Source of the DNA: an uncultured Candidatus Poseidoniales archaeon
GTDB lineage: Archaea > Thermoplasmatota > Poseidoniia > Poseidoniales > Poseidoniaceae
Assembly: GCA_964577145.1 (NCBI GenBank)
Contig: CAZNXM010000003.1
Location: 6,186-70,185, forward strand
DNA: 64,000 nt
Direction of reading: 5' to 3'
The position numbers were made by a program, and so were the translations under genes. Below the pieces are notes generated by a model. The model ran no database searches. It was not told where the DNA came from and saw nothing but the letters and a program-made list of their open reading frames with translations. Below are positions 5,473 to 33,497 of the stretch, one piece after another; the stretch's first letter is position 1; each line of letters starts with the position of its first letter.

Positions 5473-5547
5473 TAGTCACCATTACAATCCCTTCGGGATT
5501 GACCCTATTCGGGGTTGGGTTGATAAATTACGGATGGCCGTAACTAA

Positions 5548-6822: not shown

Positions 6823-7071
6823 TTGCTTGTCTACACAATCTCAATAACTATCTCTCCCTCTAGGCTGAGTAGAAGTGGTACTTTGACTGACAAAAGCATC
6901 GAGCAACGAGTGGAAGAAATGGTTGAATATATTTCCGTTCTTGAGAAGAGATTGGATAGAGTAGAAGGAAAATCTGCCCTTAATTTTGATTGGAAAACAG
7001 AGATAGGTTTTGTCATTGGAATATTTGTGCTTGGACTGGGAGCCTTGGCCTATTTCAAATACTTCAGATGA
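6823..7071 (+). CDS. Small protein with a coiled-coil segment and a C-terminal TM helix (hypothetical).
   Basis: 82-aa ORF ending IGFVIGIFVLGLGALAYFKYFR. Start uncertain (possibly MVEYISVLEKRLDRVEG). Confidence 0.25.
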   Translation: MLVYTISITISPSRLSRSGTLTDKSIEQRVEEMVEYISVLEKRLDRVEGKSALNFDWKTEIGFVIGIFVLGLGALAYFKYFR

Positions 7072-7115
7072 TTCGATTATTCGCCAACTAATCTCTTTTT
7101 TTGAGGTACTACTCC

Positions 7116-19900: not shown

Positions 19901-20411
19901 CTTGACAATTGTCGCCGATTCTGAAGGTGCTGTAGAGCAGTTGTCGACCGGTACTGAAGTGAAGGTTGCAGTTGCGACCTTGAGTTTCGTACAGGGACAA
20001 GAGAGATCAGATATTGAAGCAAATGAGGCTGGTGTTATTTCCATCATGGTAGAGAACACAGGATTCCTAACTGCAACTGATGTCATCGTGTATCTCGAAG
20101 GAACCCATGGAACTGATTATCCAGCCGAACAGGTGACGATTACTGTTCCAGCAGAGGGAGTTGCTACAGCAGTATTCGACCACGATGGATTTGTTCCAGG
20201 ACCTCAGAGATTCAAGACGTACATGACCATTATTGGAACTCCTGTTGACAGTACTGGACCTGACCATGAGGACACATTCGAGATTGAATTCTACAATGTT
20301 GCCGATGAGGAAAAGGGTGGCGGAGTTATCTATGTTGTAGCAGTTCTAGGAGCCCTCGTACTCTTCGGCGGATACAAGACTGCTCGCAAGGGTTCCAAGG
20401 CTCGCTTCTGA
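10929..20411 (+). CDS. aglB: Giant oligosaccharyltransferase AglB/STT3 fusion. N-terminal ~350-aa extra polytopic domain, STT3 core (EL1 DPWY...D.D at aa ~404, WWDYG at aa 954-958), ~2200-aa extracellular C-terminal region of repeated CarboxypepD_reg-like (TDENG) and Ig-like domains, and a C-terminal TM helix.
   Basis: Single uninterrupted 3160-aa ORF. FVSWWDYGFQ at nt 13788-13802. SDPWYMKRVVDYIIVENAHLIFDADRNYPVGGINPRPPLF first loop. Repeated IVTDENGSF / VTTDENGTF / ITDENGVW motifs. C-terminal GGGVIYVVAVLGALVLFGGYKTARKGSKARF. Confidence 0.75.
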   Translation: MSNNNGNQNGVPNGMLGWLIAPLAVLVAIAANLIGDFGLNLDLDGMTPFVAIIVAAILGTAPRTIREKADITLPTQYISLLVLIVAIVASEGAAMLSGSNLVGLLFFITMFAGHILDTRGRHEWNTVMVFTIVGLLFALIAAGDYASTGATYVLDGQEIERTSAWQEAIGFVFFNMLTLMVVLGFLAAVLTRGVLTPESEDGWFGYIPSFDGYYNKKTLPLQLALLVWAASHAAVLWYFFGSGDLNILAIYTDDAYTGYVGYWPALLTGVFALIVSWMCAERWFTRAMFIGSMWILYVVSSLYEQGHWTNENFERSWAVWIWFGITFAIGVVIYWFSTHESYGGWMIRELHEPSAARVFWSNHWAGIMTVAAFLTALAIRIQWYAVPSMNSYGIDSWDMTGGSDPWYMKRVVDYIIVENAHLIFDADRNYPVGGINPRPPLFTWSIALVGMIIAPLANVSTEEGVWWSILALPAIFGALTVFPMAAMTRDNFGKGAGVIAAWLIAFMPTHVQKSTWGMADHDSFVMLFMVAAFMFYLRAVKLGGDERLVRNVNASIPSMLNAMGAVLRQRRAASGNAIASGVCFAIVALGWKGFVYGPAILFLAYSAQVAMNMFRRRDSTILSTLNILMLGTIFLMVIPFYGHPQLDLVLNATGLQPMVFIGGFTVAITWITTGFRDKPWLLVLGSLFFGLGAFLGLLYLLQSMDISNAWNVLTTGSGYFSKDKIFGTIAEASAPSRGQLFASYGPIVFVLAIIMGFLALWDGFVKKNSTHLVLGMWVLVASYMAWSAGRFLFNAAPAMAIMGSWGIVALWRASGAGKMSKEWRRMGIRTPGERISNARRAVWRTPQFSAIGLILVLLVSQHATYGLDAAIPGSSRHEGNMDETLYNVIPDIMRWNDMGFSLLDDSEYDQDTGRWYLGSFGSGFNDQGWNMAYDWLDEQDQEMAYSDRPAFVSWWDYGFQALETGSHPSVSDNFQSGIPATGNMLLARNQDDLVAMFVWRLSEGDLKYSGDGEHTGSFESTLKSHLSTAEVNEFIAIQTDLDSEMVKARSFEVVQTNQEVTMAAGTVLSEGLLTNGDTVWKIYDSGDLVPCESTEESPDDCLGEAFTDFSDANTTFNSRIRSTKDTLFETTHYIFGDYWYTSDLIEEFDSVSTSIHRKNSGIALVTQLLIGTLDSSELNDLYVDLMDNSVYSVQNYEGAPGETITRDHEIRYFAVDNRLYPRAGKYSSDYTGGNPSGIFAAPTILSGQDFSTFMIETYETRRGEFSDEMSREEFETEMQKDAINQQSGAQIDPLQLVDIRIDHTSDFFETMLARAYVGYGASDLGFATNEQPGQHFGQSGTPETMMANALPLPGAMMNHFVIANWYDANDADNTISQANTLVKILKYYPGAEIGGTVTMSDDGQPLGDVRILIERDAFSGEDNTDLDSDTYWIPIGYTDADENGEWSYTVPAGRIRVSAYAGEYDDTAAKDVFRSGEYTETLADFLTDANDDRDTNLITSLLGKVANMTWMGESTNNISGPVANRDSEFTGSYDIEVDSSGVSGTVLWSGHESFNDLPLDNTTFILRSIWALTDNYTLETTSGSFSSETSRIMQGTGEVTFVDDGRFESEGMAIVRDFTGTFARDIADERSYTSNGSWTGAGHIVATWINMTAADCLVEENETVLPSYVDEDNHTIYDTICLTDEENTYFFAGTVSANGRMTADGTVSLVKNLDDETFEGAGIFLGEGTANGTGLFIGAGDFSGDMVKPGSFFMTGLIPGTYNMIAHLDNGKEVLLPEPLIVDVKPTFDIQMTLPGSIFEDILYDGTGERLNDTIIELVDMGLGEESVVTIVTDENGSFSHGPLAKGDYMWRVDVDQDGWYEREVPLTVGDESANLTLEVSIPTKRDLTIQLEAVDPLDPLNPLIDVTNRTLVFTNILSTDANPYVTNATSDENGVVYIEIDRGEWIVSDESDEQFVLWDEINVNTDDLNLTMSYAESVWVNGTVYAVPENIVESVGGVENMTDEMLSNHVASNVLTVEARSGSIMLSDVTDMNGTYSLRLPGSRVFHITADAYINSESYNGGHLLLDASNGVPAIFLHETTVVRGSVWLNEAGDNGTSWGEGVPGSEGAEVIATNSEGLEWRVELTEIGDFTISLQQDNWTFTISNEDMNVAPLDIEILEETPAPLELIADPNPVNLTFHVFVDTNDDRVWENGTHVQLEFSLIPVSDFGTQYNVTAANYNTETNELNITLDVGEYSIVMPQISPRDENATDYILNGDFPPGLDLGLAGSGDPVPIILDAAWLTTGTVLEDDGVTPMDNSSFWLRSVDDEEFHMVTTDENGTFADYLPQGEWVVEVAPYESSSNVTEIYRGMITLDENSSVRTDLQFMTRPALVIDMQLQEVLTGVNITATRVTAVSQDGLGNVSLGPSDNSGMITEVLMPGAWTLSLNKSNSIEQWMLDEGVYNFDTSTAVNGTWDLGIVEVEKLVSIGGKVFWDLDADDIADSSEGIADVNVTILGGSVNETLITDENGVWKMFVPIRTNYTIDVYKDGFAGATYMEGNESMYVVNDTHESRDIELVAGVVSVSGTVTDIAPQGRLENASVTLYPVIGIERDSVVAQTSFDNGTLTWTASTAPGDWVVVVTGTDITDNGGGVAVGLLQASVQDGATLDLVMSYGGRMIIDSSWSSFDNIVEYNAGDLDETVRVEIDLSEGIEWYIDFDENGEFDIILPTGTVQLISEFTNIQHEMGLEMEYNAARNIDNQVGLDSKTLEFTRRTNSDMEIGLASIESGATAGEGNLELNSITNDENGYEQIEVTLSMDYDGTEVTDIFTVSGGVSGAQDQDLWVVEFYNASSEEWETTIDVSMGVGTNSTDEANILNETVLARFTLPLQNESNSYDDGHSLNIRMVSDQGGLSEIGFSVFVEQQYQITLSDSPEAIGVADGGETLVTVDLFNEGNGDDSIEISASLEEECIDWQVTPANSTITIASGNGRTQSFTVHAPDNATVTSCDLTIVADSEGAVEQLSTGTEVKVAVATLSFVQGQERSDIEANEAGVISIMVENTGFLTATDVIVYLEGTHGTDYPAEQVTITVPAEGVATAVFDHDGFVPGPQRFKTYMTIIGTPVDSTGPDHEDTFEIEFYNVADEEKGGGVIYVVAVLGALVLFGGYKTARKGSKARF

Positions 20412-20502: not shown

Positions 20503-21723
20503 ATGTGGGAGGAGCGTGAGCTTGAGGGTATCGAGTTTATTCCCGAGCCCTCCGATTCCAGAATCCTCTCTGCAGCAGATAGTACGACGATTGGTCATCA
20601 AGAAGGGTGGCGCGCGGAAGTTCTGGGTTGGGCACCTGACCCAGTCCATGTTATTCCACGGCGCTCTAGGGCCTCTCAAAGAATTGCCAATGTTGGAATC
20701 ATGCTCCTAATGCTACTAGTTGTATGGGGAATGTGGAATTCACAATTCCTCTACCTTGAGGTTCCACCTCCTACTTCGGAATGGGCTTTTGAGGACACGG
20801 GAATAAGAGATTTACAGGAATCAGGTCTCGACGGTGCTGGAATTCGTGTATGCATGGTTGATACAGGAATCGATGCAACCCATCCCGATTTTGCTGACGC
20901 AGATATCGTGTTCAAGGATTTCTTGACGGGTAGTACAGAGCCAATAGACCATGGAGGGCTTGCTCATGGAACTATGATGGCAGGGATTTTGATTGCAGAC
21001 GGCCACATGAAAGGTGCAGCCCCTGGTGCGACCATAGGGATGGCAGCAGCACTCGGTGACGATGGCGATGGAAGCAATAGTGGCGAAGAAACACTTGTTG
21101 CCGATGCCATTGAATGGTGTTGGCGCGAATTTAATGCAGACATCATTTCGTTATCCTTAGGTGGGGTAAATGACCCAAATGCTAGTCGCGAGGGGCCTAC
21201 TACAAGTGCGGTAAGGCAGGCGATAGACCAAGGCGTGTTCATAGTTGCAGCTGCTGGAAATGATGGTGGAGTTGATGATGATGGGCGAGTAGCTTCACCA
21301 TCAAACGTAAGGGAGGCAATATCCGTTGGTGCATTACTAGAAGATGGCTCGCTTTGGGAAGGCTCGTCAAAAGGTTCACAAATAGATGATGAAAATAATT
21401 TGAGAACAGATCCACATCTGAAACCTGAAGTTTCCGCTCCAGGCTATGACATCATTTCCACGGGTCCAAATGGATTGTATTATACTTCTACTGGAACATC
21501 TGATTCTACGGTTTTTGTTGCTGGAGCCTTGGCTTTGATTCTCGAAGCCGAGCCAACTTTGAAACAAGCAGGTCCAGATTGTATGGAGATGGTAAAACAA
21601 GCATTGCAAACCTCCTCAACCCCGCTCGAAAACGGAGTTTCGCATGATGAATATTGGGGATATGGTGCTCTCAATGCTAATATTTGGCTCGAAGAAATCA
21701 GGTCTGAAGGCGCGTGTGTCTGA
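20503..21723 (+). CDS. Subtilisin-like serine protease (S8) with an N-terminal signal anchor.
   Basis: Catalytic D (VCMVDTGID), H (HGTMMAG) and S (GTSDSTVFVAGALALI) motifs, plus the hydrophobic N-terminal segment IMLLMLLVVWGMW. Confidence 0.85.
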   Translation: MWEERELEGIEFIPEPSDSRILSAADSTTIGHQEGWRAEVLGWAPDPVHVIPRRSRASQRIANVGIMLLMLLVVWGMWNSQFLYLEVPPPTSEWAFEDTGIRDLQESGLDGAGIRVCMVDTGIDATHPDFADADIVFKDFLTGSTEPIDHGGLAHGTMMAGILIADGHMKGAAPGATIGMAAALGDDGDGSNSGEETLVADAIEWCWREFNADIISLSLGGVNDPNASREGPTTSAVRQAIDQGVFIVAAAGNDGGVDDDGRVASPSNVREAISVGALLEDGSLWEGSSKGSQIDDENNLRTDPHLKPEVSAPGYDIISTGPNGLYYTSTGTSDSTVFVAGALALILEAEPTLKQAGPDCMEMVKQALQTSSTPLENGVSHDEYWGYGALNANIWLEEIRSEGACV

Positions 21724-21935
21724 GGTAAACGCTATACTGCTAGCAATATTACCAATATTACAGGATTTGACATTTATCGAGTAATTTGATATTATTATAT
21801 TTTTAATCAAAATAAAATTTATTTTTCGCATTTCGAGCAAGTGATACAATTAACTAATTTTGATACTATCCAATTGGAATTTAAACGAATCAGTTAAGGT
21901 GGACCTTGAATTCCCGAAGTTAGAGAGGGATTCAT
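21724..21935 (+). promoter_or_regulatory. Strongly AT-rich ~210-nt intergenic region upstream of the 1424-aa gene. Probable promoter (TATA-like ttatatttttaa) and 5' UTR.
   Basis: The local composition is much more AT-rich than the surrounding coding sequence. No ORF. Confidence 0.35.
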
Positions 21936-24900
21936 TTGGACAATACCAAGGCCCGTTACAGCATAGCAATGACCAGCATCTTTCTGATGTCTATCTTCGC
22001 AGGAATTGCGATGATTCCATCAGCTTCTGCGGTAAATGAAACCACTTCGGGTACTATCACTGGTACAGAAACTTGGACTGGAGTGATGAATATGGATGGC
22101 GATATTCTCGTCGCCGGTGGAGCCAAATTGATTATCAATGCAGGAACAACCATCAATATTCCAGCAAATAGAAGCATTCACATTCAAGGTTCTATTTGTG
22201 CAGGTGATACTTCATGTGGGGCTACACAGGGAAGTACCGGGTCTCCGGTACGCTTTATTTGGGGTGCTGCTGCTAGTGGACCTGCAAACCAGTCGCGCTG
22301 CTATGTAACAGGAATTTGGAACCCAGACCTCTCATGTGGTTCCGGTATCTACCTTGATTCTACGATAGATCAATCTCTTACTAAATTGAATCATGTTACT
22401 CTCGATGGTGCGTTTGGGATTCCTATTGACATCGATGGTCAAGGGAATTACAAGTACGGTGCATTGATTTTTGATGGCGCTAGTGTACAAACTTCCAATC
22501 TAAATTTCAAGGATATCAACACAACAAATGTACTCGTATTTTCGGGTGCTGCTCCAAAGATTGACGGCAGCACATTTGTCGTTGGTGCCGATGAAAATGG
22601 TTACCACGGTGCTGCGATTCAAGCATATGGTGCTGGTGCAGGATTAGTCACCATGGATGTCACAAATTCTGCATTCACCGGTGCTGAAACCGATTGTGGA
22701 AGCCAGGGTGGTGGGCGCTCAGCTATCTATCTGGAAAATTCGTTCGTGAACATGGACACAATTTCGATTACTCAGAATTCTTATGGTGCTTTCTTACGAA
22801 GCAGTAGTGGTTGGTTGACAAATTCGAATATCGCTACCAAGTGCAATGCGATTGACACGAATTCACACCTTGTTACCAACGAGTTTCGTCACACCTTCGT
22901 GATCAGTGATAACACAATCACTCCTGCTGAAGGCGCAGGTATTACCGCATATGACGGTGCGATTGTATTGGCAGAGCGAAACACTATTTCAGGTGCTTCT
23001 GAAGGTTCAGGCTTTGGAATTCGCTCGTCTGAGGTTGTTATCAACAACAACGTAATTGGTCCTATCGAAGGATGGAATGGCCTGTGGATTTATGGTGAGT
23101 CAGATGTTTCTGCTGAGAATAACACAATTCTCAACACCGGTAGGGAAGCAGTTCTACTCGGTGAATATCACTACAACGACCAAGGTTGGAATGTCCCAGC
23201 GCCATCTAAGGCTCGATTGTATTTCGCAAACAATGTTGTTTCCAACAATACGGGAACATGCAACTCCGAATGGATGTATGGTGGCGATTTCCCTTGCCCT
23301 GCTTTCCATCTATTCATGACTTCTGCAACATTTATCGATAATACCGTGACTAATAATCTCGGAGATGGATTCAGAGTTAAGGGCGGAATTATTAACGCAC
23401 AAGGCAATGATATCGAGGTCGGTGGATTTGCTGCAAACATCTCACTATATGATGATAAGTATGGCAACAAGTATGGAAGTATTGGCTACTTTGCAGAAAA
23501 TACCTATACTAACGCTAGTCAGATTTACAATGTAACCGAGTCGAGAGTTGCAGTCCAATCGGAATACATGCCAGACCCAGGTGCAGGAGAGCAATATCCA
23601 GTTCAGTTGGCATGGTTAGGTGCAGAATGTCCGTGGGCAAATGATGAATGTCTACAAACGCCAACAACTGCTGACATGCCGCCGAGATTTATGCCACTTT
23701 CAATGGAATTGAATGTCAATGCAACAACTTTCACTTTCGCAGATGTACTGAACTTTGATCGCTCAAAGATTCACATTCAGAACCAAAACACTGCTTGGGG
23801 TGTACAAGTCGAACAAGGAGAATTAGTTCGCTATCAAGTAAAGGCAGACAATTCTCAGGTAGCAGACGCCCTTGTCAAAATCAAGGATGCAAATGGCAAG
23901 CCCCTGTACAATATGTCCACAGATGCATATGGATTCACTCAATGGGTAACTCTCCCATCCAACTTCCATATTGATACAAATTGGAATCATCTTGCAAATG
24001 ATCCTGGTGAGGATTCATGTGGTGACGGAAGTGACAATGATGGAGACACATTGGTCGATGGTCAAGACCCTGATTGCCAAACTGGAAGGGAAATGCCATT
24101 GTACAGTGTTTCCGCAAGCAAATTTGGCAAAGGCACATCGGACCACGATTTCACTTTGACTGGAATGGTCGATGAGACAATTCATCTAAGCAATACTGCA
24201 CCTTCGATTTCTATCGACCAAAACGATGGAACATCATTCCCTCGAACTGTTAGTTTGAGCGGTAGTGCACACGATGGAATTTCTGGACCATATTTCAATG
24301 ATTATGATTCATATGTCAAGCAATTTGGATTAGTGAAGCGTGTCGAGATTCAGCCGCATGGCAGTTCGGATTGGTACCTTGCAACCGATACTTCGAATGC
24401 AGATGGTGAAGTTACAGCACAGAATTGGCCTTTCAAGTCTTGGAGTTTTGACTGGGATATGTCCAATCACTTTGAGGAGGATGTTACATTCAGAGTAAAA
24501 TCCTTTGATGGTATCGAAGATTCCATTGTAACAACTAGAGTTTTCAAACTCAACATTAATCCTCCAAATCTTGTGTTGGAGTCACCGATTGATGGTTCTA
24601 CTCACAGTGGTTCTGATATTCTGTTCAGTGGCACCGCAAGCGATGACTATCAGGGAGTTTGGGGAAGCGATATCAGGGACATCTGGTTCCAGGTTGAAGG
24701 TCCAAACAATTACTCTGCTAACTACCCAGCTGGAATGGGTGGTTCAAGCGTGTGGAGCGACAAATGGAATTTCTCATCATTGCCTTCTGGTGATTATACA
24801 TTCACCGTGTGGGCTAGTGATTCAAATTATTGTCATGAGGAAGTTGACGTCTGTACTGCAGATACAATCACAGTGACTGTTGATAATGACAATCGCCTTC

Positions 24901-26210
24901 CAATTGTCCAAGTAAGTGAGCCACTTCCTTTCGATAGTATTCGTGCCTCTGAAGACACAATTATCTCAGGAGTTGCCAGAGACAATGATGGTCAAGTTAC
25001 TCGAGTTGAGATTTCAATTGTCGATTTAGCAAGTGGAATTGAGTTACTTGATGGGCCCGACCCAATTACTAATTTCCAACCAAATGGTGCATGGGCAACA
25101 TATTGGGACACAAGTGATCTAGTTCATGACCAACAGTATGAAATTCATGTAAAGGCATACGATGGTATTGATTATTCAATGATTGAAGTACTGAGAATTG
25201 TCATCGACAATCCATCCGATGCGAACAACATCGCTCCAACATTTTCTCCAGATGGCTGGATTAGCACAATCACAATCTTCTGTGATGAGAAATCGAATGC
25301 TTTCAATAAATGCGGGGTAGGTGCAAGTATTAACCTGCTAGATTTCTTTAATGATTCAGATGGAGTTGGTCCAGATACAAGCCACATGGTTTTCGATATT
25401 TACGACGATCCCTCGACACTAGTCGATGACGATTATGCGTACCACATCCAAATTGATGCTAAGGGTGTTGCAACTTACAACCCTATGAATTCAATGTCCT
25501 CTCACTCTTCTGAGATATCGGAATGGTCTCTCGTAAATGTGATGTTTGAGGCTCGTGATGCACATGATTCTCCAGCATATTCCTATACGATTAATTTCAT
25601 CGTTAAGGGTGTTGAATTTACTGCAGTTAGAGAAGATGCAGGTGCTCTTGTATTCGGTGATGATGCCGAGTTCAGCGGTACAGGTTTGCCGGGAAGTCAA
25701 GTCAAAGCTAGATTACTTTCTGGAAATCTATTACTAAACCAGACTACCGTCAAGGATGATGGAACATGGAATATGGCACTAACAGCTAGCCAATTAGGCG
25801 ATGATGGTGTGTACGATATTTACTTTGAGCAGGATGGTCAATACATCGGCAAAGGTGAAAAGAATGACAATTCAGAGTTCGCATTACAAAATGGATTGAC
25901 TGCAGCATCAGGTATTCCGGGATGGCTACTTGTTGTGTTCGTAGTAATCGGAATAGTAGTTCTTCTTGGTGTAGGTGCTTTCTTCTTCATTGAATTTGAA
26001 GAATTTGACGAAGACGAGGAAGGTTCTGACGAGCAACAAAAGGATGAGGACCCCTATGCATGGGCAAAGGTGAGAGCAGCCGAGCAAGCAGTTGCAGCAG
26101 CAGCACCTGCACCTCAACCTGCTGCCGAGCCTCAGCATCCTGGTTGGCTATGGGACACACAATCAAATCAGTGGGTTCCAGACCCCAATTACCAGCCACC
26201 ACAGCAGTAA
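21936..26210 (+). CDS. Giant secreted surface protein: signal peptide, right-handed parallel beta-helix (PbH1) repeats, Ig-like domains, C-terminal TM and an acidic/Pro-rich cytoplasmic tail.
   Basis: MDNTKARYSIAMTSIFLMSIFAGIAMIPSASA signal. NNT(I/L)xN / NNVxxNN repeats. C-terminal GWLLVVFVVIGIVVLLGVGAFFFI, then DEDEEGSDEQQKDEDP ... AAAPAPQPAAEPQHPGWLWDTQSNQW. Confidence 0.8.
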   Translation: MDNTKARYSIAMTSIFLMSIFAGIAMIPSASAVNETTSGTITGTETWTGVMNMDGDILVAGGAKLIINAGTTINIPANRSIHIQGSICAGDTSCGATQGSTGSPVRFIWGAAASGPANQSRCYVTGIWNPDLSCGSGIYLDSTIDQSLTKLNHVTLDGAFGIPIDIDGQGNYKYGALIFDGASVQTSNLNFKDINTTNVLVFSGAAPKIDGSTFVVGADENGYHGAAIQAYGAGAGLVTMDVTNSAFTGAETDCGSQGGGRSAIYLENSFVNMDTISITQNSYGAFLRSSSGWLTNSNIATKCNAIDTNSHLVTNEFRHTFVISDNTITPAEGAGITAYDGAIVLAERNTISGASEGSGFGIRSSEVVINNNVIGPIEGWNGLWIYGESDVSAENNTILNTGREAVLLGEYHYNDQGWNVPAPSKARLYFANNVVSNNTGTCNSEWMYGGDFPCPAFHLFMTSATFIDNTVTNNLGDGFRVKGGIINAQGNDIEVGGFAANISLYDDKYGNKYGSIGYFAENTYTNASQIYNVTESRVAVQSEYMPDPGAGEQYPVQLAWLGAECPWANDECLQTPTTADMPPRFMPLSMELNVNATTFTFADVLNFDRSKIHIQNQNTAWGVQVEQGELVRYQVKADNSQVADALVKIKDANGKPLYNMSTDAYGFTQWVTLPSNFHIDTNWNHLANDPGEDSCGDGSDNDGDTLVDGQDPDCQTGREMPLYSVSASKFGKGTSDHDFTLTGMVDETIHLSNTAPSISIDQNDGTSFPRTVSLSGSAHDGISGPYFNDYDSYVKQFGLVKRVEIQPHGSSDWYLATDTSNADGEVTAQNWPFKSWSFDWDMSNHFEEDVTFRVKSFDGIEDSIVTTRVFKLNINPPNLVLESPIDGSTHSGSDILFSGTASDDYQGVWGSDIRDIWFQVEGPNNYSANYPAGMGGSSVWSDKWNFSSLPSGDYTFTVWASDSNYCHEEVDVCTADTITVTVDNDNRLPIVQVSEPLPFDSIRASEDTIISGVARDNDGQVTRVEISIVDLASGIELLDGPDPITNFQPNGAWATYWDTSDLVHDQQYEIHVKAYDGIDYSMIEVLRIVIDNPSDANNIAPTFSPDGWISTITIFCDEKSNAFNKCGVGASINLLDFFNDSDGVGPDTSHMVFDIYDDPSTLVDDDYAYHIQIDAKGVATYNPMNSMSSHSSEISEWSLVNVMFEARDAHDSPAYSYTINFIVKGVEFTAVREDAGALVFGDDAEFSGTGLPGSQVKARLLSGNLLLNQTTVKDDGTWNMALTASQLGDDGVYDIYFEQDGQYIGKGEKNDNSEFALQNGLTAASGIPGWLLVVFVVIGIVVLLGVGAFFFIEFEEFDEDEEGSDEQQKDEDPYAWAKVRAAEQAVAAAAPAPQPAAEPQHPGWLWDTQSNQWVPDPNYQPPQQ

Positions 26211-26249
26211 TTGTCAACACAGACTACCATAACACTCTAAGAGGAACCA

Positions 26250-28790
26250 GTGGGCGTTGATGATATGGTCGCGAAACCTAAACCAGGGGTACAAGAGAGA
26301 ATACTTCTCCACCTTTCTGATTTTTCGGATTTTATGAATTCGGTTGAGGTTCCGTTCGCACTTTCGCAGATGGGAATTGCAAACGCAGTTGCGATTGCGA
26401 GGTCAAATGTACCTAGGGCAATCGCTGGTCTCAAGGATCAAGGCCTGCTAATTGAGCGGCAAGCACACGTTCAAGGAGTCAGCCGTAAAAGGAAGGCATA
26501 TTTCTTGACCGATACGGGGATGGTACTGGCAGATGAGACTTGGAAGAGACTCCGTGATTTCTCACTGCGGTGCATTTTACCCGATGGTCAAACGATTAGT
26601 TCTACCTTAGGTGAAGTGCAAGACCAACTTCCATTTTCGATGAGGCCGGTTGATGTCATTAGGTATCTGGATGATAATGGAGTTCTCGATGTTCGCTCAT
26701 TATCGGCAGAGCTTGTTGAGAGGGACCTCTCAAAACATGTTGAGAAGCAATTGGTTTCAAGTCTAGGAGATTTACCACGGCTCCGCCATTTCTATGGCAG
26801 ATCTCAGGAACTCGAGAATATGGTCAATCTCTTGGAAGCGAGGTCAACAACATTGATGATTCCCGGAATTGCTGGAATTGGAAAAACAGCAATGGCTGCA
26901 AAAATCATTGAATCATTTATGCATCGCCGTAATCTTCTCTATCATAGATGTCAAGACTGGGATGGTAGCAGGGCACTGTTCGAAAATATTGCTGATTGGT
27001 TATCCAATATCGGTGACCCAATGCTTTCGGAATATATCTCTGCCACACCGGTGCCAAAACCTGGTGATGCAGCTGATTTAATCATTGACGCACTCGATAA
27101 TACTCCGGCACTAATCGTGATTGATGATTATCACAAAGTGAGTGACAAGGCATTGCATCAGATGGTACAAGCATTGTCTAGAGGCCTTGTTGATAGCGAA
27201 GGTGATGTAGGACTGGTGATTTTCTCGCGTTCATTCAAGCCTGTAGTGCCAATGAAGGATGCAGAGGGGAAAATTGTGAGCCTTGTTCTCCCATTGGAAG
27301 GCCTTGATCAAGATTCATGTAGAAGTCTTCTCTCCACTTTCGAAGATTTGGATAATGAGACATTGCTATACATTCATTCCCTATCAAGAGGCCACCCCTT
27401 AGTTCTGGAATTAATCAACCGCGGTGCTTCGGCAGGTGCATTCCATGAAACATTAGAGAATTATGTAAATATCGAGATTTTCTCTAAATTGAGTGGGGAA
27501 CAGAAACGCCTCCTTGGAGTTCTTTCTGTTTTCCGTGAACCTATTCCATTAGCAGCACTTACCGAGCAGGATTTGAACATTGATGAATTAGATTCCCTCG
27601 TTGAGGCTGGACTTGCTAGGCAAGCTGATTCTGATGCATATGACGTACACGATTTGATTCGTGAGTTCTTACTTCAGAGTTTAGACCACCAGACGAAAGA
27701 AGAATTGCACAATAAGGCTGTTCTGTGGTATGAAAAGCAGGGCAGTGGGCCACTGATTGCTATGGAATTGATCTACCATTTAATCAGTAGTTCTCGGCAT
27801 GAGGACGCTGGTGAAATCATTGTTCAACAAGGAAGAAATCTGATCAAAGAAGGGTACATAGAATTACTTGGATTGTTAGAAGCGATTGACTTGTCGGAGA
27901 TTCAAGAGGAGAATGCTTGCAGAATTGATTGTCTCAAGGGCGAGGTTCTTTCACTACTGGGGAGATTTGCTGAGGCTGAATCTGCATTCAATTCAGCCCG
28001 TGCTCCTGCAGAAGCAGCGGGAATCCAAGATGTAATTGCCGACCTTCATTCCAACCTTGCAGATATCGCATTAAAGCGTGGTGAAACTGAATCTTCATTG
28101 ACAATGCATCGTAATGCGCTTGAATTATTCATTCAAATGGGTGATGCAGTCGGCGCTGCACGCTCTTACAATAATATGGGCTACATCATGCGTCGCGGTG
28201 GAGATAAAGTCAAGGCTCTTGAGGCATATGGTGAGGTTGAAGCAATACTTTCAGATGATAGTTCTGAGGAACTTATTCCAGCACAATTGATTCTTGCTCG
28301 AGCACTGATTGACCTTGGCGAAGTAGACCGAGCCAGAGACCACGCTCTCAATGCGTACGAAGCATCGTCTGATGGTGCTGACCTGATTCTACACGCAAGG
28401 TCGCGAGCAGTTCTTGGTAGATACTATGCCAAGGTAGGAGACTCAGACCTAGCATTGCATCACTATTCGGACGCACTAGAGGTAATGGGAGAGGCAGGAG
28501 ACCCTCATGCACTTGTTGAAGTCAGTATTCTTCTCGGTGAAGTTCTACAGGATAGTGGGCGTGTTGATGAGGCACTCGAGAGATATCGCGCAGCCCTTCT
28601 AATCGCCGAAGGAAACGATCTAAGGATGCAAATCGGAGAGTTGCTTTCACGTCTTGGTGGTGTAGCTCCCGACCGGCAGAGACGAATGGAATATCTTCAA
28701 AGAGCACTTTCGGTATTCAGAGAATTAGGTGCACAAGCAAGGATGCGTGAGGTCCAGATGATGGTTCACACCGCCGTGATGGGACGCTGA
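26250..28790 (+). CDS. STAND-class NTPase with an N-terminal winged-helix domain, NB-ARC-like P-loop ATPase and C-terminal TPR repeats (putative signal-transducing regulator).
   Basis: wHTH ALSQMGIANAVAIARSNVPRAIAGLKDQGLLIE. Walker A LMIPGIAGIGKTAMA. Walker B ALIVIDDYHKV. C-terminal TPR-like repeats (ARSYNNMGYIMRRGGDKVKALEAY ...). GTG at 26250 or ATG at 26265 as start. Confidence 0.75.
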   Translation: MGVDDMVAKPKPGVQERILLHLSDFSDFMNSVEVPFALSQMGIANAVAIARSNVPRAIAGLKDQGLLIERQAHVQGVSRKRKAYFLTDTGMVLADETWKRLRDFSLRCILPDGQTISSTLGEVQDQLPFSMRPVDVIRYLDDNGVLDVRSLSAELVERDLSKHVEKQLVSSLGDLPRLRHFYGRSQELENMVNLLEARSTTLMIPGIAGIGKTAMAAKIIESFMHRRNLLYHRCQDWDGSRALFENIADWLSNIGDPMLSEYISATPVPKPGDAADLIIDALDNTPALIVIDDYHKVSDKALHQMVQALSRGLVDSEGDVGLVIFSRSFKPVVPMKDAEGKIVSLVLPLEGLDQDSCRSLLSTFEDLDNETLLYIHSLSRGHPLVLELINRGASAGAFHETLENYVNIEIFSKLSGEQKRLLGVLSVFREPIPLAALTEQDLNIDELDSLVEAGLARQADSDAYDVHDLIREFLLQSLDHQTKEELHNKAVLWYEKQGSGPLIAMELIYHLISSSRHEDAGEIIVQQGRNLIKEGYIELLGLLEAIDLSEIQEENACRIDCLKGEVLSLLGRFAEAESAFNSARAPAEAAGIQDVIADLHSNLADIALKRGETESSLTMHRNALELFIQMGDAVGAARSYNNMGYIMRRGGDKVKALEAYGEVEAILSDDSSEELIPAQLILARALIDLGEVDRARDHALNAYEASSDGADLILHARSRAVLGRYYAKVGDSDLALHHYSDALEVMGEAGDPHALVEVSILLGEVLQDSGRVDEALERYRAALLIAEGNDLRMQIGELLSRLGGVAPDRQRRMEYLQRALSVFRELGAQARMREVQMMVHTAVMGR

Positions 28791-29261
28791 TTAGAAATTA
28801 GGGCCACTGATGGATATCCTAGTGATGCCATTTTCATGTATTACCCATATTTGCGTTGTACCTGAGAGTGATATCGAGCCTTCATAATCTCCGGAGCCCG
28901 TCCCCGAAATACTGAGCGTCGTATCGAGTTCATCCTCAAAATGGTCTAATGATAATCCATCTTCACTAAGTGAAAGAGTGAATAAACTTTCATCGGCCTC
29001 GGTTAATCTCCATTCAACAGATTCAGCATATTTCACATCTTCACCTTGTCTACTTGCGCTATCAGCGCGTTCAACCGCAGCAGCAATATCAGCCATGTTC
29101 GCATCAATGGCGGTTTCGTTCCATCTTTGCCTAGTTGAAGTTTCGATTTCAAAAGTCCAAACTGCAAACATTGAAAGTAATAGAACTCCGAGTAGGAATG
29201 TAAAGACATAGCCTAATTCTGTCGATGCGGCCTCTACATCATTCTTGAGTTTCCCGTTCAT
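28791..29261 (-). CDS. Small protein with a class-III (archaeal type IV pilin-like) signal peptide; putative minor pilin (third gene of the operon).
   Basis: MNGKLKNDVEAASTELGYVFTFLLGVLLLSMFAVW N-terminus. Its start overlaps the stop of 29258..31405 by 4 nt. Confidence 0.55.
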   Translation of the reverse strand: MNGKLKNDVEAASTELGYVFTFLLGVLLLSMFAVWTFEIETSTRQRWNETAIDANMADIAAAVERADSASRQGEDVKYAESVEWRLTEADESLFTLSLSEDGLSLDHFEDELDTTLSISGTGSGDYEGSISLSGTTQIWVIHENGITRISISGPNF

Positions 29262-31405
29262 ATTCTAGCCTCCGTAACATGGGCTTCAATACTACTTATT
29301 TGCAAATTGAATTGGATTGGGAGACCACCTGTGTGCCACACCGCTTCACTTGGACCATGTGAAGGGATAGGAACCCATCCTGTATAGTCGTCAAGTAAAT
29401 CCATTCTTCCTGGAGTGACAATCCAATCCTCTGATGCCTCGAGGTCTTGAGAGGACCAAGAGGCAATAGCATCACCATATGGCCCAGCCCATCCTCTGCG
29501 TACTTCGTATGCAGTAGTTGATGCAAGGCTTTCTCTGTTGGTTAATTCCAAATTTAAATTCATGACTCCTGCTCCAGAGACACTATTCGAAGTTGGATGC
29601 ATTGATGGGATTGTAGCAGAGAAGCGTGGACCTGGGCCCCCTCTATCGGTTGGACCTTGGAGGATTAGAGGTTTCAGTTCTGGATGATTGGTTACTACGG
29701 CACCAGCAGACCATGCGACTTCTAAGCCACTAATAGATGAATCAAATTCATAAGTAAAACGAGAAAGATGGAAGGCCCAAGCGGTTGCAATTGTAGAATG
29801 GCTCGAATCACCAATATTGCCGATAAGATCGATGCCTATACTCGCCGGATGAGCTCCACTTTTCCACGCAGCGATTATGCCTCCCTCAAGAAGACCATTC
29901 AAATTCGCCCAAGGTAACTGGACCTCAATCCAACCTGAAGCAGTAGTGTCTACCATGATGCAACGAGGAGAACCATCGTGTCGTAGTGAAAGCAATCCGG
30001 AATCTCCATCATCACGAATAACCGTTAGTGCATCTCCGTCAGTACTTGTCAATGTATCATCGGATGCTGGTGTTATTGTGGTCGATGGAGCATCGGTGTC
30101 AAGTGTTCCATTTGCAGAACTCATATTCCACGAAGTTTCCATGCCAGACAGTTGCACCTCATTGACAGAACCTTCCTCTAGGAAAAATTCCGAACCTGAA
30201 AGGCGACCAGTATCGCTTGCTCCAAGCAAATCTAGCCCATTTGTTCCAGAAGCCCAAGACAGCATTACCGCTTGGCTTGATTCGATAATAGCTGCATCAA
30301 CGAGTCCCGCTGCAGGCCAGTCTACTTCGATTGTTGAATCTGCGGGAACTGAGGTTCCACCATTGCGCCAAGTAATAGTTGCAGAATTATCGCTTGGGTT
30401 TGACAGAACCAATTTACCATCTACGAATGGTGGGATAAATCGTTTTGACAACATCGAACCATCACTACCTGGCCACGCAGTCCTTCCTTCATCAGAGAAC
30501 ATTACCATCAAACGAGCATCGCTATCTGAAAATACTTCGAGTAGTGTATCCTCGGTAGCTGTGAAAGTGCGGGTCCAATAATTTGCCGAATGCAAAGTAG
30601 TCGGATGGACTTCCACTTGCGTTCCTGAGTCACCTTCCATTGCCCATTGCACCATCAGATCATCCTCTGCAAGCATGTGAATTGTGGTAGTACCCGTTGC
30701 AAGTGGAATCGCCCAATGTCTGCCCTCTCCGGTTGCAGGCTCTGCTTTGGAGGGTGGATGAATCGAAACTCCACCATCACCTTGGATTGCAAAACCTGTT
30801 AGTTCATGGCTTGAAGAAAATTCTTCATCGCTGTCGATAACTAATACTTCGCCTACCTTCAGTGAAAAGACATCCTCGCCCTGTGAGATTTCAACTGGAC
30901 CTAATGGAATCGCCAATCCATGTGCAGGTGTGATGATGTATGAATCGGCATTAGAATAGGGTGTATAGATGAAATCTCTGTCGGGGCCAAGTCGCATATC
31001 CTCTGTACATATTGCTTGAACATGGCCCTCTGGGTGGCGAATTTCCATATTATTGTCGAGAGTTAGGGCATCCCTAATCCGGAAGGAATTATCCTCGTAC
31101 CATGATGCTGAATACCACATCCCACCACGGACTCGGTCCCAACGCATTTCACCATCTACCGGAATTAACTCATATTCCGTCTTATCACCAGGCATCCCCG
31201 ATTCGGAGAGAATTGTGACTTCATGACCAAAACTGGTTAACTGCGCTTCCATATCATGCCGCTTGACAGAACCTTCCAATTCTTGAATAACAGGCATCAT
31301 GGAAAGCAACATCATTCCAATGATGGAAATAACTCCACCAAAGAGTAAGACCGTAGCGACAGCAGCACTCACTGCATCATCATCTCTTCGCAATTCTCCT
31401 TTCAT
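29258..31405 (-). CDS. Large (715 aa) protein with an archaeal class-III / DUF1628-type pilin signal peptide and an unknown extracellular domain.
   Basis: MKGELRRDDDAVSAAVATVLLFGGVISIIGMMLL matches the archaeal pilin N-terminal pattern (D/E)(R/D)AVSxV(I/V)G plus hydrophobic helix. Overlaps the upstream gene by 4 nt. Confidence 0.7.
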   Translation of the reverse strand: MKGELRRDDDAVSAAVATVLLFGGVISIIGMMLLSMMPVIQELEGSVKRHDMEAQLTSFGHEVTILSESGMPGDKTEYELIPVDGEMRWDRVRGGMWYSASWYEDNSFRIRDALTLDNNMEIRHPEGHVQAICTEDMRLGPDRDFIYTPYSNADSYIITPAHGLAIPLGPVEISQGEDVFSLKVGEVLVIDSDEEFSSSHELTGFAIQGDGGVSIHPPSKAEPATGEGRHWAIPLATGTTTIHMLAEDDLMVQWAMEGDSGTQVEVHPTTLHSANYWTRTFTATEDTLLEVFSDSDARLMVMFSDEGRTAWPGSDGSMLSKRFIPPFVDGKLVLSNPSDNSATITWRNGGTSVPADSTIEVDWPAAGLVDAAIIESSQAVMLSWASGTNGLDLLGASDTGRLSGSEFFLEEGSVNEVQLSGMETSWNMSSANGTLDTDAPSTTITPASDDTLTSTDGDALTVIRDDGDSGLLSLRHDGSPRCIMVDTTASGWIEVQLPWANLNGLLEGGIIAAWKSGAHPASIGIDLIGNIGDSSHSTIATAWAFHLSRFTYEFDSSISGLEVAWSAGAVVTNHPELKPLILQGPTDRGGPGPRFSATIPSMHPTSNSVSGAGVMNLNLELTNRESLASTTAYEVRRGWAGPYGDAIASWSSQDLEASEDWIVTPGRMDLLDDYTGWVPIPSHGPSEAVWHTGGLPIQFNLQISSIEAHVTEARI

Positions 31406-32445
31406 CCACTCACCTCTATTCTTTGGAGGTCAATTTCAAGGTCGATCATCGTATATCCACCATCTACGGTGAATCCATCACTACCACTTGCACGTAGCCA
31501 TGGACAAATCCCATTGAATTCTTCAAGTGTCCCCGATGCACGGTGCAGATTGTATTCGGTCAACCAATTCTCATGCATTTGTGGAGTGATTGTGGAATCA
31601 AGTGAGGAGTCATAGGTGAAGCGGAAATGCCACGCATCGCCACTGAAGAGGTTTATTGGGCCCTTTGAAACTAAGTCAATTCCCATTGAGCGACCAGTTG
31701 GAACCGTGCCGTTAATTGTAACATCTCGCAACAGCATCGAGGCTCTAACCGTCCCGTCTACTAGTTCGTCTAGAACTACACTGGGGCGCTTGGACAAGGC
31801 CCATGGTGCATCTTCTGTTTTGTCAGCACGGCCATCGTTAACCATGGCGATTCCATGCTCTCCACCTTTGATATTCGTAACGACTTGTAAACCTGATAAG
31901 GTGATACTCGCATAGCGGTGAATCGGAGTGCCATCCGCATCGAATACCGTGATGATAACAAGGTCCTTGACCTCAAGTTCATGTTCGACGAACACAGCCT
32001 CATGAGAAGGTGTGAATGAATGACTTTCCTCGCCATTTTCTGTCCAAATTAATATCGATGCAGCGGTTTCATTTATGGCTAAAATCGAAAACGAAGACGA
32101 ACTATTCCAGGTGACAGTCACACGTTCATAGTCAACAAGGTCAGCTGCAAGTGTCCAAGTTTCCACATTGACAAGTGGTGCGACATTACTACTTGCTGCG
32201 GGAATAGTAGTCCGGATTCCAGTGTTTTCAGGCATTGGTCCCGTTAGAGCAATTCTATCCTCTAGTCTATCCGCAATACCATTTGCATTGGCCCATGAGG
32301 TATTATCTTGGAAATCTTCGATATAGGGTGTGAGCATCAAAAACACTCCACCCATTATCGTGATTACCATTGCCAGAAGCATGACTACTCCGATGACCTC
32401 GCTAACAGCGAAGTCATTTTCACGCTGGGCACGGCGTCTCATCAA
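31402..32445 (-). CDS. Protein (347 aa) with an archaeal class-III / DUF1628-type pilin signal peptide; first gene of the three-gene operon.
   Basis: MMRRRAQRENDFAVSEVIGVVMLLAMVITIMGGVFLML. Confidence 0.7.
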   Translation of the reverse strand: MMRRRAQRENDFAVSEVIGVVMLLAMVITIMGGVFLMLTPYIEDFQDNTSWANANGIADRLEDRIALTGPMPENTGIRTTIPAASSNVAPLVNVETWTLAADLVDYERVTVTWNSSSSFSILAINETAASILIWTENGEESHSFTPSHEAVFVEHELEVKDLVIITVFDADGTPIHRYASITLSGLQVVTNIKGGEHGIAMVNDGRADKTEDAPWALSKRPSVVLDELVDGTVRASMLLRDVTINGTVPTGRSMGIDLVSKGPINLFSGDAWHFRFTYDSSLDSTITPQMHENWLTEYNLHRASGTLEEFNGICPWLRASGSDGFTVDGGYTMIDLEIDLQRIEVSG

Positions 32446-32503: not shown

Positions 32504-33319
32504 TCATAGGTGCAAGGAAATTCTGCTTCGGGCATCAATTTCACTTTCATTGGCGCTTAGGTGATGAGTGAATTCCGGTCCGTCCTGCAAAGAGATTCTG
32601 ATATCTCCTTCGAATATATCTTCCAAGTGATAGAGCACTGTTGACTCAGCCAGATGAGGAAGATTATTTCTCTCGGAAAGGTGGGTCAAAACAATTGATT
32701 TTGTCTCAGCGGTAACCACGTTGGAAAGGAACTCCCCAGTCTGGTGGTTTGACAGGTGTCCGCCACGACTTCCTATCCGCTCTTTGAGCCGCATTGGATA
32801 TGGCCCATTCCACAATCTATTGTGGTCGTAATTTGCCTCGATTGAAATGTGTTGACAACCGTGGAGATGAGTAACTAATTCCTCAGTCCATGACCCAAGA
32901 TCTGTAACTACTGCAGCTCGCTCTTTGCCATTACTGGCGATGAAAGCTACATTGTCTGCGCCGCTATGTGGGACCGGCACCGGGAGAAGCGCTAATTTGC
33001 CGATTTCCAAGGCCTCAAGAGATTCAAAAATTCTTACTTTGGAGAGGTCGAGATTGAGTGCGGCTGCAGTTCGGTCATTGCACAAAATTGGGATGTCAAA
33101 TCTGCGTTGAGCAATCGCTGCTCCGCCACCGTGGTCACCGTGGTGATGTGTTATCAAAATCGCATCAATTTCGTGCGGTTGAATCTCCATTAATGAGAGC
33201 CTTCTTTCGAATTCTCGCCCGCTAAAACCTTGGTCGATGATGACTTTTGACTCCCCACATTCAACCAAAGTAGCGTTACCGCGGCTCCCGGTTCCAAGGT
33301 GGGTGACTGACATCGGCAT
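32504..33319 (-). CDS. MBL-fold metallo-hydrolase (metallo-beta-lactamase superfamily).
   Basis: ILITHHHGDHGGG (HxHxDH) plus downstream His/Asp ligands. Start set at MPMSVTHLGTGS (33319). The ORF is open to 33376. Confidence 0.8.
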   Translation of the reverse strand: MPMSVTHLGTGSRGNATLVECGESKVIIDQGFSGREFERRLSLMEIQPHEIDAILITHHHGDHGGGAAIAQRRFDIPILCNDRTAAALNLDLSKVRIFESLEALEIGKLALLPVPVPHSGADNVAFIASNGKERAAVVTDLGSWTEELVTHLHGCQHISIEANYDHNRLWNGPYPMRLKERIGSRGGHLSNHQTGEFLSNVVTAETKSIVLTHLSERNNLPHLAESTVLYHLEDIFEGDIRISLQDGPEFTHHLSANESEIDARSRISLHL

Positions 33320-33497
33320 GGTTAACCCAAGGAGACCAGCGCGTTGAGCCCTTGAACCCATCTCATGTTGAGTCACTATTCCGGCGTATTTTCACGGAAC
33401 CCAGAAGACTCCGTAGGAGTCATCTGTCGGAACAGTACTCCATCATCCTATTAAGGCAGGTTCAGTCGTTCATGACTGTCTGGGTGCATTTGCGCCC

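Follow-up and report, generated by a model that had tools for sequence, protein, structure and literature searches.

A 64-kb stretch of DNA from a Candidatus Poseidoniaceae (Marine Group IIa) archaeon (contig CAZNXM010000003.1; hereafter the window, always at its full length) carries a gene whose product, the regulator, is very probably a PH0952-like transcription factor of the STAND (signal transduction ATPases having numerous domains) class. Upstream of the neighbouring surface-protein gene lies an array of four direct TGATAYW heptamers, which is conserved between related loci, confined to this promoter in the DNA scanned and spaced in discrete steps. From the sequences and from analogy with studied STAND proteins we propose, at a probability of roughly 0.6, that the regulator is an ATP- and ligand-gated factor that binds this array and activates an operon made up of the surface-protein gene and the regulator gene itself. 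Marine Group IIa archaea are abundant in the surface ocean and, to our knowledge, uncultured. Literature searches turned up no description of a regulator or circuit of this kind in Poseidoniales. The protein class and the PH0952-like architecture are already known; what is new is the candidate operator, for which a phasing rule can be given, along with the operon that is its likely target and a peptide that may be the ligand.

The open reading frame (ORF) was confirmed at 26250..28790 on the plus strand, a GTG start giving 846 aa. The true start is ambiguous between GTG 26250 and ATG 26265, five codons apart, because the homologues favour the latter (the start in about 110 of the 120 homologues listed, with proteins of 840-841 aa), whereas the former is better spaced to a GAGGA ribosome-binding site. 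Residue numbers follow the 841-aa numbering throughout. The nearest public contig found, JASLKC010000017.1, encodes a homologue that is 98% identical, and regulator homologues are labelled in IMG as 'MalT' or 'TPR repeat protein/MarR family regulator'. No paralogue is present within the window.

The assignment to the PH0952-like STAND proteins was made because PH0952 of Pyrococcus horikoshii (PDB 6mfv) can be aligned with the whole nucleotide-binding oligomerisation domain (NOD), with an E value of 1.9e-25 that is by far the best PDB sequence match, and also tops the Foldseek ranking of the predicted structure (9e-17). It is followed there by Apaf-1 (2e-12), MalT (8bob; 1e-11), CED-4, plant NRCs and Avs3 (3e-9), and the origin recognition complex (ORC)/Cdc6 structures come below these STAND proteins, at 2e-8 and weaker. 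A preliminary description of the window, drawn from its letters alone, had read the gene as a winged helix-turn-helix (wHTH), an NB-ARC-type P-loop and tetratricopeptide repeats (TPRs), laid out as in signal-transduction ATPases of the MalT/AfsR type. The wHTH, the GIAGIGKT and LIVIDD motifs and the TPRs are all found, and the wHTH-STAND-TPR order agrees with the functional type proposed. The NB-ARC label did not hold: Pfam NB-ARC (PF00931) is not reached (14.6 bits, E 0.019, against a cutoff of 23.5), and the best Pfam NTPase models for the core are AAA_16 (2e-7; 32.1 against a cutoff of 32.6) and nSTAND6. The label 'NB-ARC-type' is loosely right in evolutionary terms and wrong as a family assignment; one relative at 32% identity has a significant precomputed NB-ARC match.

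In the text available to us of its structure paper (Lisa et al. 2019, PMC6468293), PH0952 is a predicted transcription factor whose clade is sister to APAF1, with MalT basal to both. It is likewise archaeal and shows the same order of N-terminal wHTH, nucleotide-binding, helical and winged-helix domains, arm and TPR sensor, and in its resting monomer, which binds ADP, arm and sensor act as the lock. That text names neither a target nor an inducer for PH0952, whereas a candidate operator can be named for the regulator. The two proteins share about 24% identity in the structural alignment. They differ by an extra middle domain of about 70 aa in the regulator, whose nucleotide-binding domain begins at about aa 166-180 as against about aa 102 in PH0952, and by their wHTH, which is described as ArsR-like in that part of the PH0952 paper and best matches Crp/MarR/PadR in the regulator.

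Profiles and structural model agree that the N-terminal domain is a wHTH of the MarR/Crp/PadR type and neither a nuclease nor a protease, which bears out the DNA-binding-like domain of the preliminary description. When the PDB was searched with a profile of the N-domain family (28 diverse members), the top matches were all DNA-binding wHTH regulators, among them MepR (2e-4), MJ223, SlyA, PadR and Crp/Fnr. The Pfam family HTH_Crp_2 was matched by 25 of the 28 members (best E 6.7e-10), MarR_2 by 15 and PadR by 12. The domain from the window, taken alone, gave sub-threshold Pfam matches, all to wHTH families (HTH_Crp_2, PadR, HVO_A0261_N and MarR_2). In the AlphaFold2 (AF2) model it has the topology helix-helix-helix-beta-beta(wing)-helix, with a predicted local distance difference test score (pLDDT) above 90 over aa 10-100. 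The helix-turn-helix (HTH) has the sequence LSQMGIANAVAIARSNVPRAI and the wing reads VSRKRKAYFLT. This is the best conserved domain of the regulator (0.86), and HTH and wing are unchanged even in an orthologue of 65% identity, which carries the same heptamers. No family match was assigned to the small middle domain that follows (aa 98-165).

The NOD spans aa 166-474. Conservation of its residues was judged over 84 diverse sequences at about 30% identity: G201, G204, G206 and K207 of Walker A are invariant, as are G376 and P378 of the GxP motif, while D287 and D288 of Walker B are at least 90% conserved, and so is H462 of the winged-helix domain, which is aligned with HD in PH0952. The arm is the least conserved part of the protein (0.53). 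The TPR region is matched in Pfam by TPR_12 (2.5e-24) and TPR_MalT (5e-9). The AF2 model used here was built from the 84 diverse sequences and has a mean pLDDT of 91.1 over aa 1-555; it supersedes an earlier model from 30 close sequences (pLDDT 71.6), which was poor in the wHTH and the nucleotide-binding domain.

The preliminary description had supposed that the protein switches the neighbouring adhesin or pilus genes, and had pointed to the promoters of the genes at 21936 and 32445 as places for conserved binding motifs. The first of these carries such a motif. Among related loci, the 212-nt intergenic region 21724-21935 is almost fully diverged save for the heptamers, a proximal TATA-like element and the ribosome-binding site, and in its distal part the columns conserved at 90% or more are confined to the heptamer cores. 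The footprint has the form TGATAYW-N12-TGATAYW, a spacer of 16, 26 or 48 bp, and again TGATAYW-N12-TGATAYW, giving four direct heptamers, which start in the window at 21768, 21787, 21842 and 21861. Counts of this operator pattern cover the window and, in every related genome, some 22 kb surrounding the gene. The exact N12 dyad was counted 102 times and is present in 66 of 69 loci. Each copy lies in the 350 nt upstream of the beta-helix surface-protein gene, in the same orientation as the gene, and no copy was found elsewhere on either strand of 1.56 Mb. In the window the dyad is present at 21768 and 21842 only, mismatched matches at chance level aside. Upstream of the beta-helix gene the heptamer density is 17.3 per kb, compared with a background of 0.49 per kb. 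The pilin side of the earlier proposal fared differently: in four other intergenic regions, including the pilin-operon promoter at 32445, the heptamer is at background level and no repeated motif was found.

The spacing of the array follows a narrow rule. Within a dyad the heptamers are 12 nt apart in 104 cases and 13 nt in 10. Between the dyads, 30 loci have a spacer of 16 bp, 18 have one of 26 bp and 2, the window among them, one of 48 bp; no other value occurs. Such steps of 10 and 22 bp would be expected if both dyads keep to the same face of the helix. The array is also kept in a metagenomic lineage (L188) in which the S8 and beta-helix proteins are just 38-40% identical. A general promoter element was considered and rejected, TTGATAYT and the 13-mer not being enriched in the window. 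No second target of the four-heptamer array was seen in metagenomes among the matches listed, ten of which are the same locus; a non-satellite match that was followed up (L106) is a leucine-rich-repeat coding sequence and no second target. Many matches to the operator pattern came from unrelated metagenomic contigs (L089-L208), whose tandem satellites, of about 19-bp period and containing TGATAYW, swamp the search.

Is the regulator the protein that reads this array? We consider this somewhat better than an even bet, because the array adjoins the only recognisable transcription-factor gene of the cluster and because the invariance of the HTH matches that of the heptamers. No other match to a DNA-binding family was found among the scanned ORFs of the conserved cluster. 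The likely target would be the adhesin-like gene together with the regulator gene and not the pilin genes, because the heptamer array is found only at the 21936 promoter.

As the preliminary description had it, the regulator gene stands between a large surface-protein gene and pilin-like genes: upstream is a 1424-aa beta-helix/immunoglobulin (Ig)-like surface protein, and downstream a convergent operon of three pilin-like genes. The surface protein combines a signal peptide with a right-handed beta-helix, Ig-like domains and a transmembrane (TM) helix, and its cytoplasmic tail (aa 1353-1424) measures about 70 aa; the protein has no sequence relative in the PDB and no NCBIfam assignment. Its gene and that of the regulator probably form one operon, because the gap between them is short (28-58 nt across loci) and contains a ribosome-binding site and neither promoter nor terminator signals.

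We modelled the mechanism by analogy with two bacterial STAND proteins. In MalT, inducer and ATP drive the formation of open-ring oligomers, which bind cooperatively at several promoter sites (PMC10427625); in AfsR, one protomer occupies each direct repeat, and NOD and TPR autoinhibit the protein until ATP binds (PMC10936776). By the same logic, the NOD of the resting regulator would hold ADP and be locked by the arm and the TPR sensor. Binding of an inducer to the TPRs and the arm would release this lock, ATP would replace ADP, and a head-to-tail multimer would form. The multimer would align its N-terminal winged helices on the four direct heptamers, that is, on two dyads with a 19-bp register and in helical phase, at an estimated -60 to -170 or so upstream of the TATA-like element of the surface-protein gene. 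Activation of the operon of surface protein and regulator would then result in positive autoregulation. We infer activation rather than repression and, from the analogy, an inducer-gated ADP/ATP switch with multimerisation.

Among 1.84 billion representative sequences, 2437 relatives of aa 1-555 were found, 465 of them below 1e-30. The Poseidoniaceae orthologues fall into a single full-length cluster at 50% identity and some fragment clusters. The remaining full-length matches are about 26-35% identical, and since the alignment of most of them extends from wHTH to arm, the wHTH-NOD fusion appears to be an old and widespread architecture. Where a source is named, the relatives come from Thermoplasmata archaea. 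By a pattern scan, 419 GTDB species genomes, the majority from Ca. Poseidoniaceae, encode a relative. The 84 related loci (L001-L084) all show one gene order as far as each contig extends: a giant STT3-domain protein, an S8 subtilase, the beta-helix surface protein and the regulator, followed on the other strand by a DUF7266-like protein, a 715-aa protein, a Pilin_N/DUF7289 protein and an MBL-fold (metallo-beta-lactamase) protein, and after these a 1899-aa protein. Within this cluster the regulator is the best conserved protein, at 67-98% identity compared with 30-77% for most neighbours (the near-identical locus L005 aside). The rest of the window is housekeeping and includes GARS, DnaJ, ribosomal S15 and GluRS. 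By this profile the regulator looks like a conserved core gene of marine Group IIa archaea and not like a defence gene. In some members of the wider NOD-TPR family (P0178, 1061 aa; L087 6001-9186) an N-terminal DUF835 replaces the wHTH; on this evidence the sensor-switch module pairs with different N-terminal heads.

Several observations weigh against the proposal that the regulator binds the array and drives this operon. Under a looser heptamer definition 14 loci have a single dyad. MarR-type wHTH proteins usually bind palindromes as dimers and not direct repeats. Further members of the regulon may lie beyond the scanned regions, and the sole ground for co-transcription is the short gap and its lack of promoter and terminator signals. 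Fixed synteny within one family of collinear genomes is a weak sign of functional linkage, and the distant relatives, at about 30% identity, stand in varied gene contexts. Finally, the array could belong to a transcription factor encoded elsewhere. On that explanation the STAND protein would be a real transcription factor, and its true targets would be the pilin-like operon, the giant surface-protein genes or distant loci, reached through an unrecognised site. The proximity of the regulator to pilin and surface genes would suit such targets, but the pilin operon is convergent with it and has its promoter about 3.7 kb away, beyond three genes. Two of the four distant relatives point the same way, one (L088) directly downstream of a Pilin_N gene and one (L086) divergent from giant PKD/FG-GAP proteins, as does a separate and strongly conserved block, some 30 nt long, that lies between the MBL-fold and 1899-aa genes; these have to be set against the background-level heptamers of the other intergenic regions, the position of the array beside the cluster's one recognisable transcription-factor gene and the shared invariance of heptamer and HTH. 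We therefore regard ownership of the array by a different regulator as unlikely, although it is the explanation to which we would turn next. If the array is not bound by the regulator, the protein stays an ordinary, correctly annotated member of a known regulator class.

Binding of the array and activation of the operon could be extended to an outside-in pair, in which the TPR sensor reads the tail of the surface protein and extracellular engagement or processing of that protein gates the regulator. The surface protein is of type I, with a C-terminal TM helix, and its cytoplasmic tail ends in a motif, HPGW[LI]WDxxSNQWVPDPNY, that occurs nowhere else in the window (candidate ligand peptide, HPGWLWDTQSNQWVPDPNY); the last 20 residues, one of the protein's best conserved portions, have 0.80 identity, as against 0.37 for the preceding linker and 0.61 for the protein as a whole. 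TPR domains commonly bind short peptides. This conserved cytoplasmic peptide is encoded immediately upstream of a cytoplasmic TPR sensor, and for that reason it is our candidate for a TPR ligand or anti-activator, a role that we put forward as speculative. MalT offers a partial precedent, since it is also controlled by partner proteins such as MalK and MalY (PMC10427625), but what this TPR-STAND regulator senses is a small molecule, maltotriose, and the tail motif could instead serve sorting, anchoring or another partner. The extension is accordingly a doubtful one, and the complete self-contained module, in which tail peptide, TPRs, multimer on phased heptamers and auto-amplified operon all act in series, is a little more doubtful again.

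The remaining explanations concern the nature of the NTPase. An antiviral STAND (Avs) protein or another defence NTPase, with the N-domain as effector, would account for Avs3 being among the structural matches (3e-9) and for weak PADLOC matches to PDC-S27 and PDC-S73. Avs proteins, Apaf-1 and plant nucleotide-binding leucine-rich-repeat receptors (NB-ARC) do share the NOD fold and the switch logic with the regulator, but the latter has no death, nuclease or protease effector and is chromosomal, in fixed synteny and in no defence island. PADLOC gave no Avs model, just a generic TPR model beside the weak PDC matches; the N-domain is of the MarR/Crp/PadR wHTH type; synteny among housekeeping genes is invariant over the 84 loci; relatives are present in the 419 species genomes; and conservation is higher in the regulator than in its neighbours, the reverse of what a patchy, fast-evolving defence gene would show. 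We rejected a defence role, which the preliminary description had also thought the less likely one, as very improbable. An Orc1/Cdc6 initiator or a plain AAA+ protein, with the AT-rich repeats acting as an origin, is if anything less credible. ORC/Cdc6 structures and a weak TIGR02928 match are on record, and the heptamers do repeat in an AT-rich intergenic region, but TIGR02928 scores 14.1 bits against a cutoff of 181, the STAND structures rank higher, and the STAND winged-helix domain, the arm and the TPRs are present. Moreover, the cumulative GC skew climbs smoothly through 21.8 kb with no inflection, and the repeats are unidirectional heptamers upstream of a TATA-like box. This candidate was likewise rejected.

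Large surface proteins are thought to mediate attachment to particles or polymers in the heterotrophic Marine Group IIa archaea, and the proposed circuit, if true, would tie regulation to such proteins. It would also show a STAND multimer reading direct repeats upstream of an archaeal TATA promoter. Should the outside-in module be true, the PH0952-like STAND clade would have its first defined inducer, operator and target, and a regulatory circuit would for the first time have been worked out in the uncultured Marine Group II archaea. The locus amounts to a concrete prediction that is testable without cultivation: a candidate operator of 100 bp that holds four heptamers, the operon that it would control and a peptide that may act as ligand.

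The regulator differs in several respects from the better-known STAND regulators. MalT of Escherichia coli resembles it as a STAND protein with a TPR-type sensor, and is a transcription activator. Sequence matches between the two are weak (NF003420 at 5e-13, beside the TPR_MalT match), and the MalT family NF003420 is not reached (48 bits against a cutoff of 537). The LuxR-type DNA-binding domain of MalT is C-terminal, whereas that of the regulator is N-terminal and the protein ends in TPRs; the bacterial MalT works with the sigma-70 RNA polymerase, whereas the regulator would use the archaeal machinery of TATA-binding protein and transcription factor B. AfsR of Streptomyces, a SARP-NOD-TPR protein (SARP, Streptomyces antibiotic regulatory protein), has a similar layout, with an N-terminal DNA-binding domain followed by NOD and TPRs. 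Its DNA-binding module is an OmpR-type wHTH plus a BTAD, for neither of which (Trans_reg_C, BTAD) the regulator has a Pfam match, and the AfsR model NF053617 covers only the TPR region (8e-12, 43.9 bits against a cutoff of 1430), which leaves the regulator outside the AfsR/SARP-STAND family. The AfsR repeats are of 11 bp and overlap the -35 element, whereas the candidate operator consists of heptamers in a 19-bp register, far upstream of the TATA-like box. GutR of the bacterium Bacillus subtilis may be set beside the regulator too: it has an N-terminal HTH, an NTP-binding domain and C-terminal TPRs and is an inducer-dependent activator of an adjacent operon. The features of the regulator, its candidate operator and the presumed target are listed in Table 1.

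Table 1. Coordinates, in the window, of the regulator gene and its domains, the candidate operator and the upstream surface-protein gene.
Feature	Position	Strand	Basis or remark
Distal dyad, TGACATT-N12-TGATATT	21768..21793	+	Phylogenetic footprint
Proximal dyad, TGATACA-N12-TGATACT	21842..21867	+	Footprint; 48 bp downstream of distal dyad, 68 bp upstream of surface-protein gene
Beta-helix/Ig surface protein, 1424 aa, type-I membrane	21936..26210	+	Sequence features; presumed target and first operon gene
C-terminal TM helix of surface protein, aa 1327-1352	25914-25991	+	Sequence
Tail motif HPGW[LI]WDxxSNQWVPDPNY, cytoplasmic C-terminus of surface protein	26136..26192	+	Conservation
Gap between surface-protein and regulator genes	26211..26264	+	GAGGA ribosome-binding site; no AT-rich promoter, no T-run
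wHTH-NOD-arm-TPR STAND protein gene (regulator)	26250..28790	+	846 aa from GTG 26250 or 841 aa from ATG 26265
N-terminal wHTH domain, aa 1-97	26265..26555	+	AF2 model, PDB profile search, Pfam, conservation
Small beta/alpha middle domain and linker, aa 98-165	26556..26759	+	AF2 model; conserved in wider family
Nucleotide-binding domain	26760..27230	+	LPRLRHFYGR pre-P-loop motif, Walker A, Walker B
Walker A GIAGIGKT, aa 201-208	26865-26888	+	Motif
Walker B LIVIDD, aa 283-288	27111-27128	+	Motif
Helical domain and STAND-specific winged-helix domain	27231..27686	+	PH0952 alignment, AF2 model
GHPLVLEL in helical domain	27390-27413	+	Motif
VHDLIREF with conserved His-Asp, in winged-helix domain	27645-27668	+	Motif
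Arm (HD2), helical hairpins, aa 475-545	27687..27899	+	AF2 model; domain definition from available text of PMC6468293
TPR sensor, aa 546-841, about 7 repeats and capping helix (15 helices in model)	27900..28787	+	Pfam, AF2

The giant STT3-domain protein (3160 aa; 10929-20411, +) contains an STT3/AglB oligosaccharyltransferase domain at aa 392-800 (4.6e-17), together with beta-sandwich domains of the CarboxypepD_reg and SdrD_B-like kinds and, at its C-terminus, a TM helix. Its gene lies ahead of that of the S8 protease in all loci whose length allows this to be seen. A typical archaeal AglB is far smaller than 3160 aa. For the S8 subtilase (20503-21723, +) the nearest NCBIfam models are the type-VII-secretion mycosins (3e-34, below cutoff); it belongs to the conserved cluster and could process the neighbouring surface proteins. 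Further downstream, a 1787-aa protein (39299-44662, +) has a C-terminal TM helix and a proline-rich cytoplasmic tail whose Trp-rich motif, GWTEDQWQHYGHQYV, loosely resembles the tail motif of the beta-helix protein.

The pilin-like operon (28791-32445, -) consists of ORFs of 156, 715 and 347 aa, all with N-termini like those of archaeal type-IV pilins (class-III-signal-peptide-like). Pfam support is weak (DUF7266, DUF7289 and Pilin_N, near or below cutoff), and the 715-aa protein has no family match; the scanned ORFs of the window include neither an assembly ATPase nor PilC nor a prepilin peptidase. The operon converges on the regulator gene, the two stop codons meeting at 28790/28791 with zero intergenic bases, and in a clade of about 69% identity the regulator and the last pilin-like gene overlap by 4 nt (L003 12520-12523). 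Each transcript must therefore end inside the coding sequence of the other.

Upstream of the distant relatives nothing convincing in the way of an analogous array was seen at L086 and L087, and L085 is masked by Ns. At L088, whose metagenomic relative is 32% identical, the region upstream of the preceding pilin gene (5341-5404) has TTACAGGTA/TTACATGTA as a direct repeat in three copies, in a single sequence that has no phylogenetic support. The pilin gene there, a Pilin_N gene of 153 aa, lies directly ahead of the STAND gene (5429-8421), and a gene for an Arc_PepC_II protein (preflagellin-peptidase C-terminal) is nearby. Because two of the four distant relatives adjoin pilin or giant surface-protein genes, a link of the regulator family to cell-surface genes is possible at the level of the family.

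Just upstream of the pilin-like genes, on the same strand, is the gene of the MBL-fold protein (32504-33376, -), whose match to the anti-Pycsar Apyc1 family is weak in the window copy and stronger, by precomputed annotation, in homologues. The conserved block of about 30 nt lies at about 33420-33455 in the divergent intergenic region between this gene and that of the 1899-aa protein; it is at least 90% conserved over 59 loci, with no codon periodicity, and has the consensus TGTCCGAACATCGCTCCATCATCCTCATAAG. It has no Rfam match. The 1899-aa gene may have in this block a 5' leader or a regulatory element; alternatively, the block may be a tiny minus-strand ORF (MRMMERCSDKY); one gene caller did call a 25-aa ORF at this position in L001.

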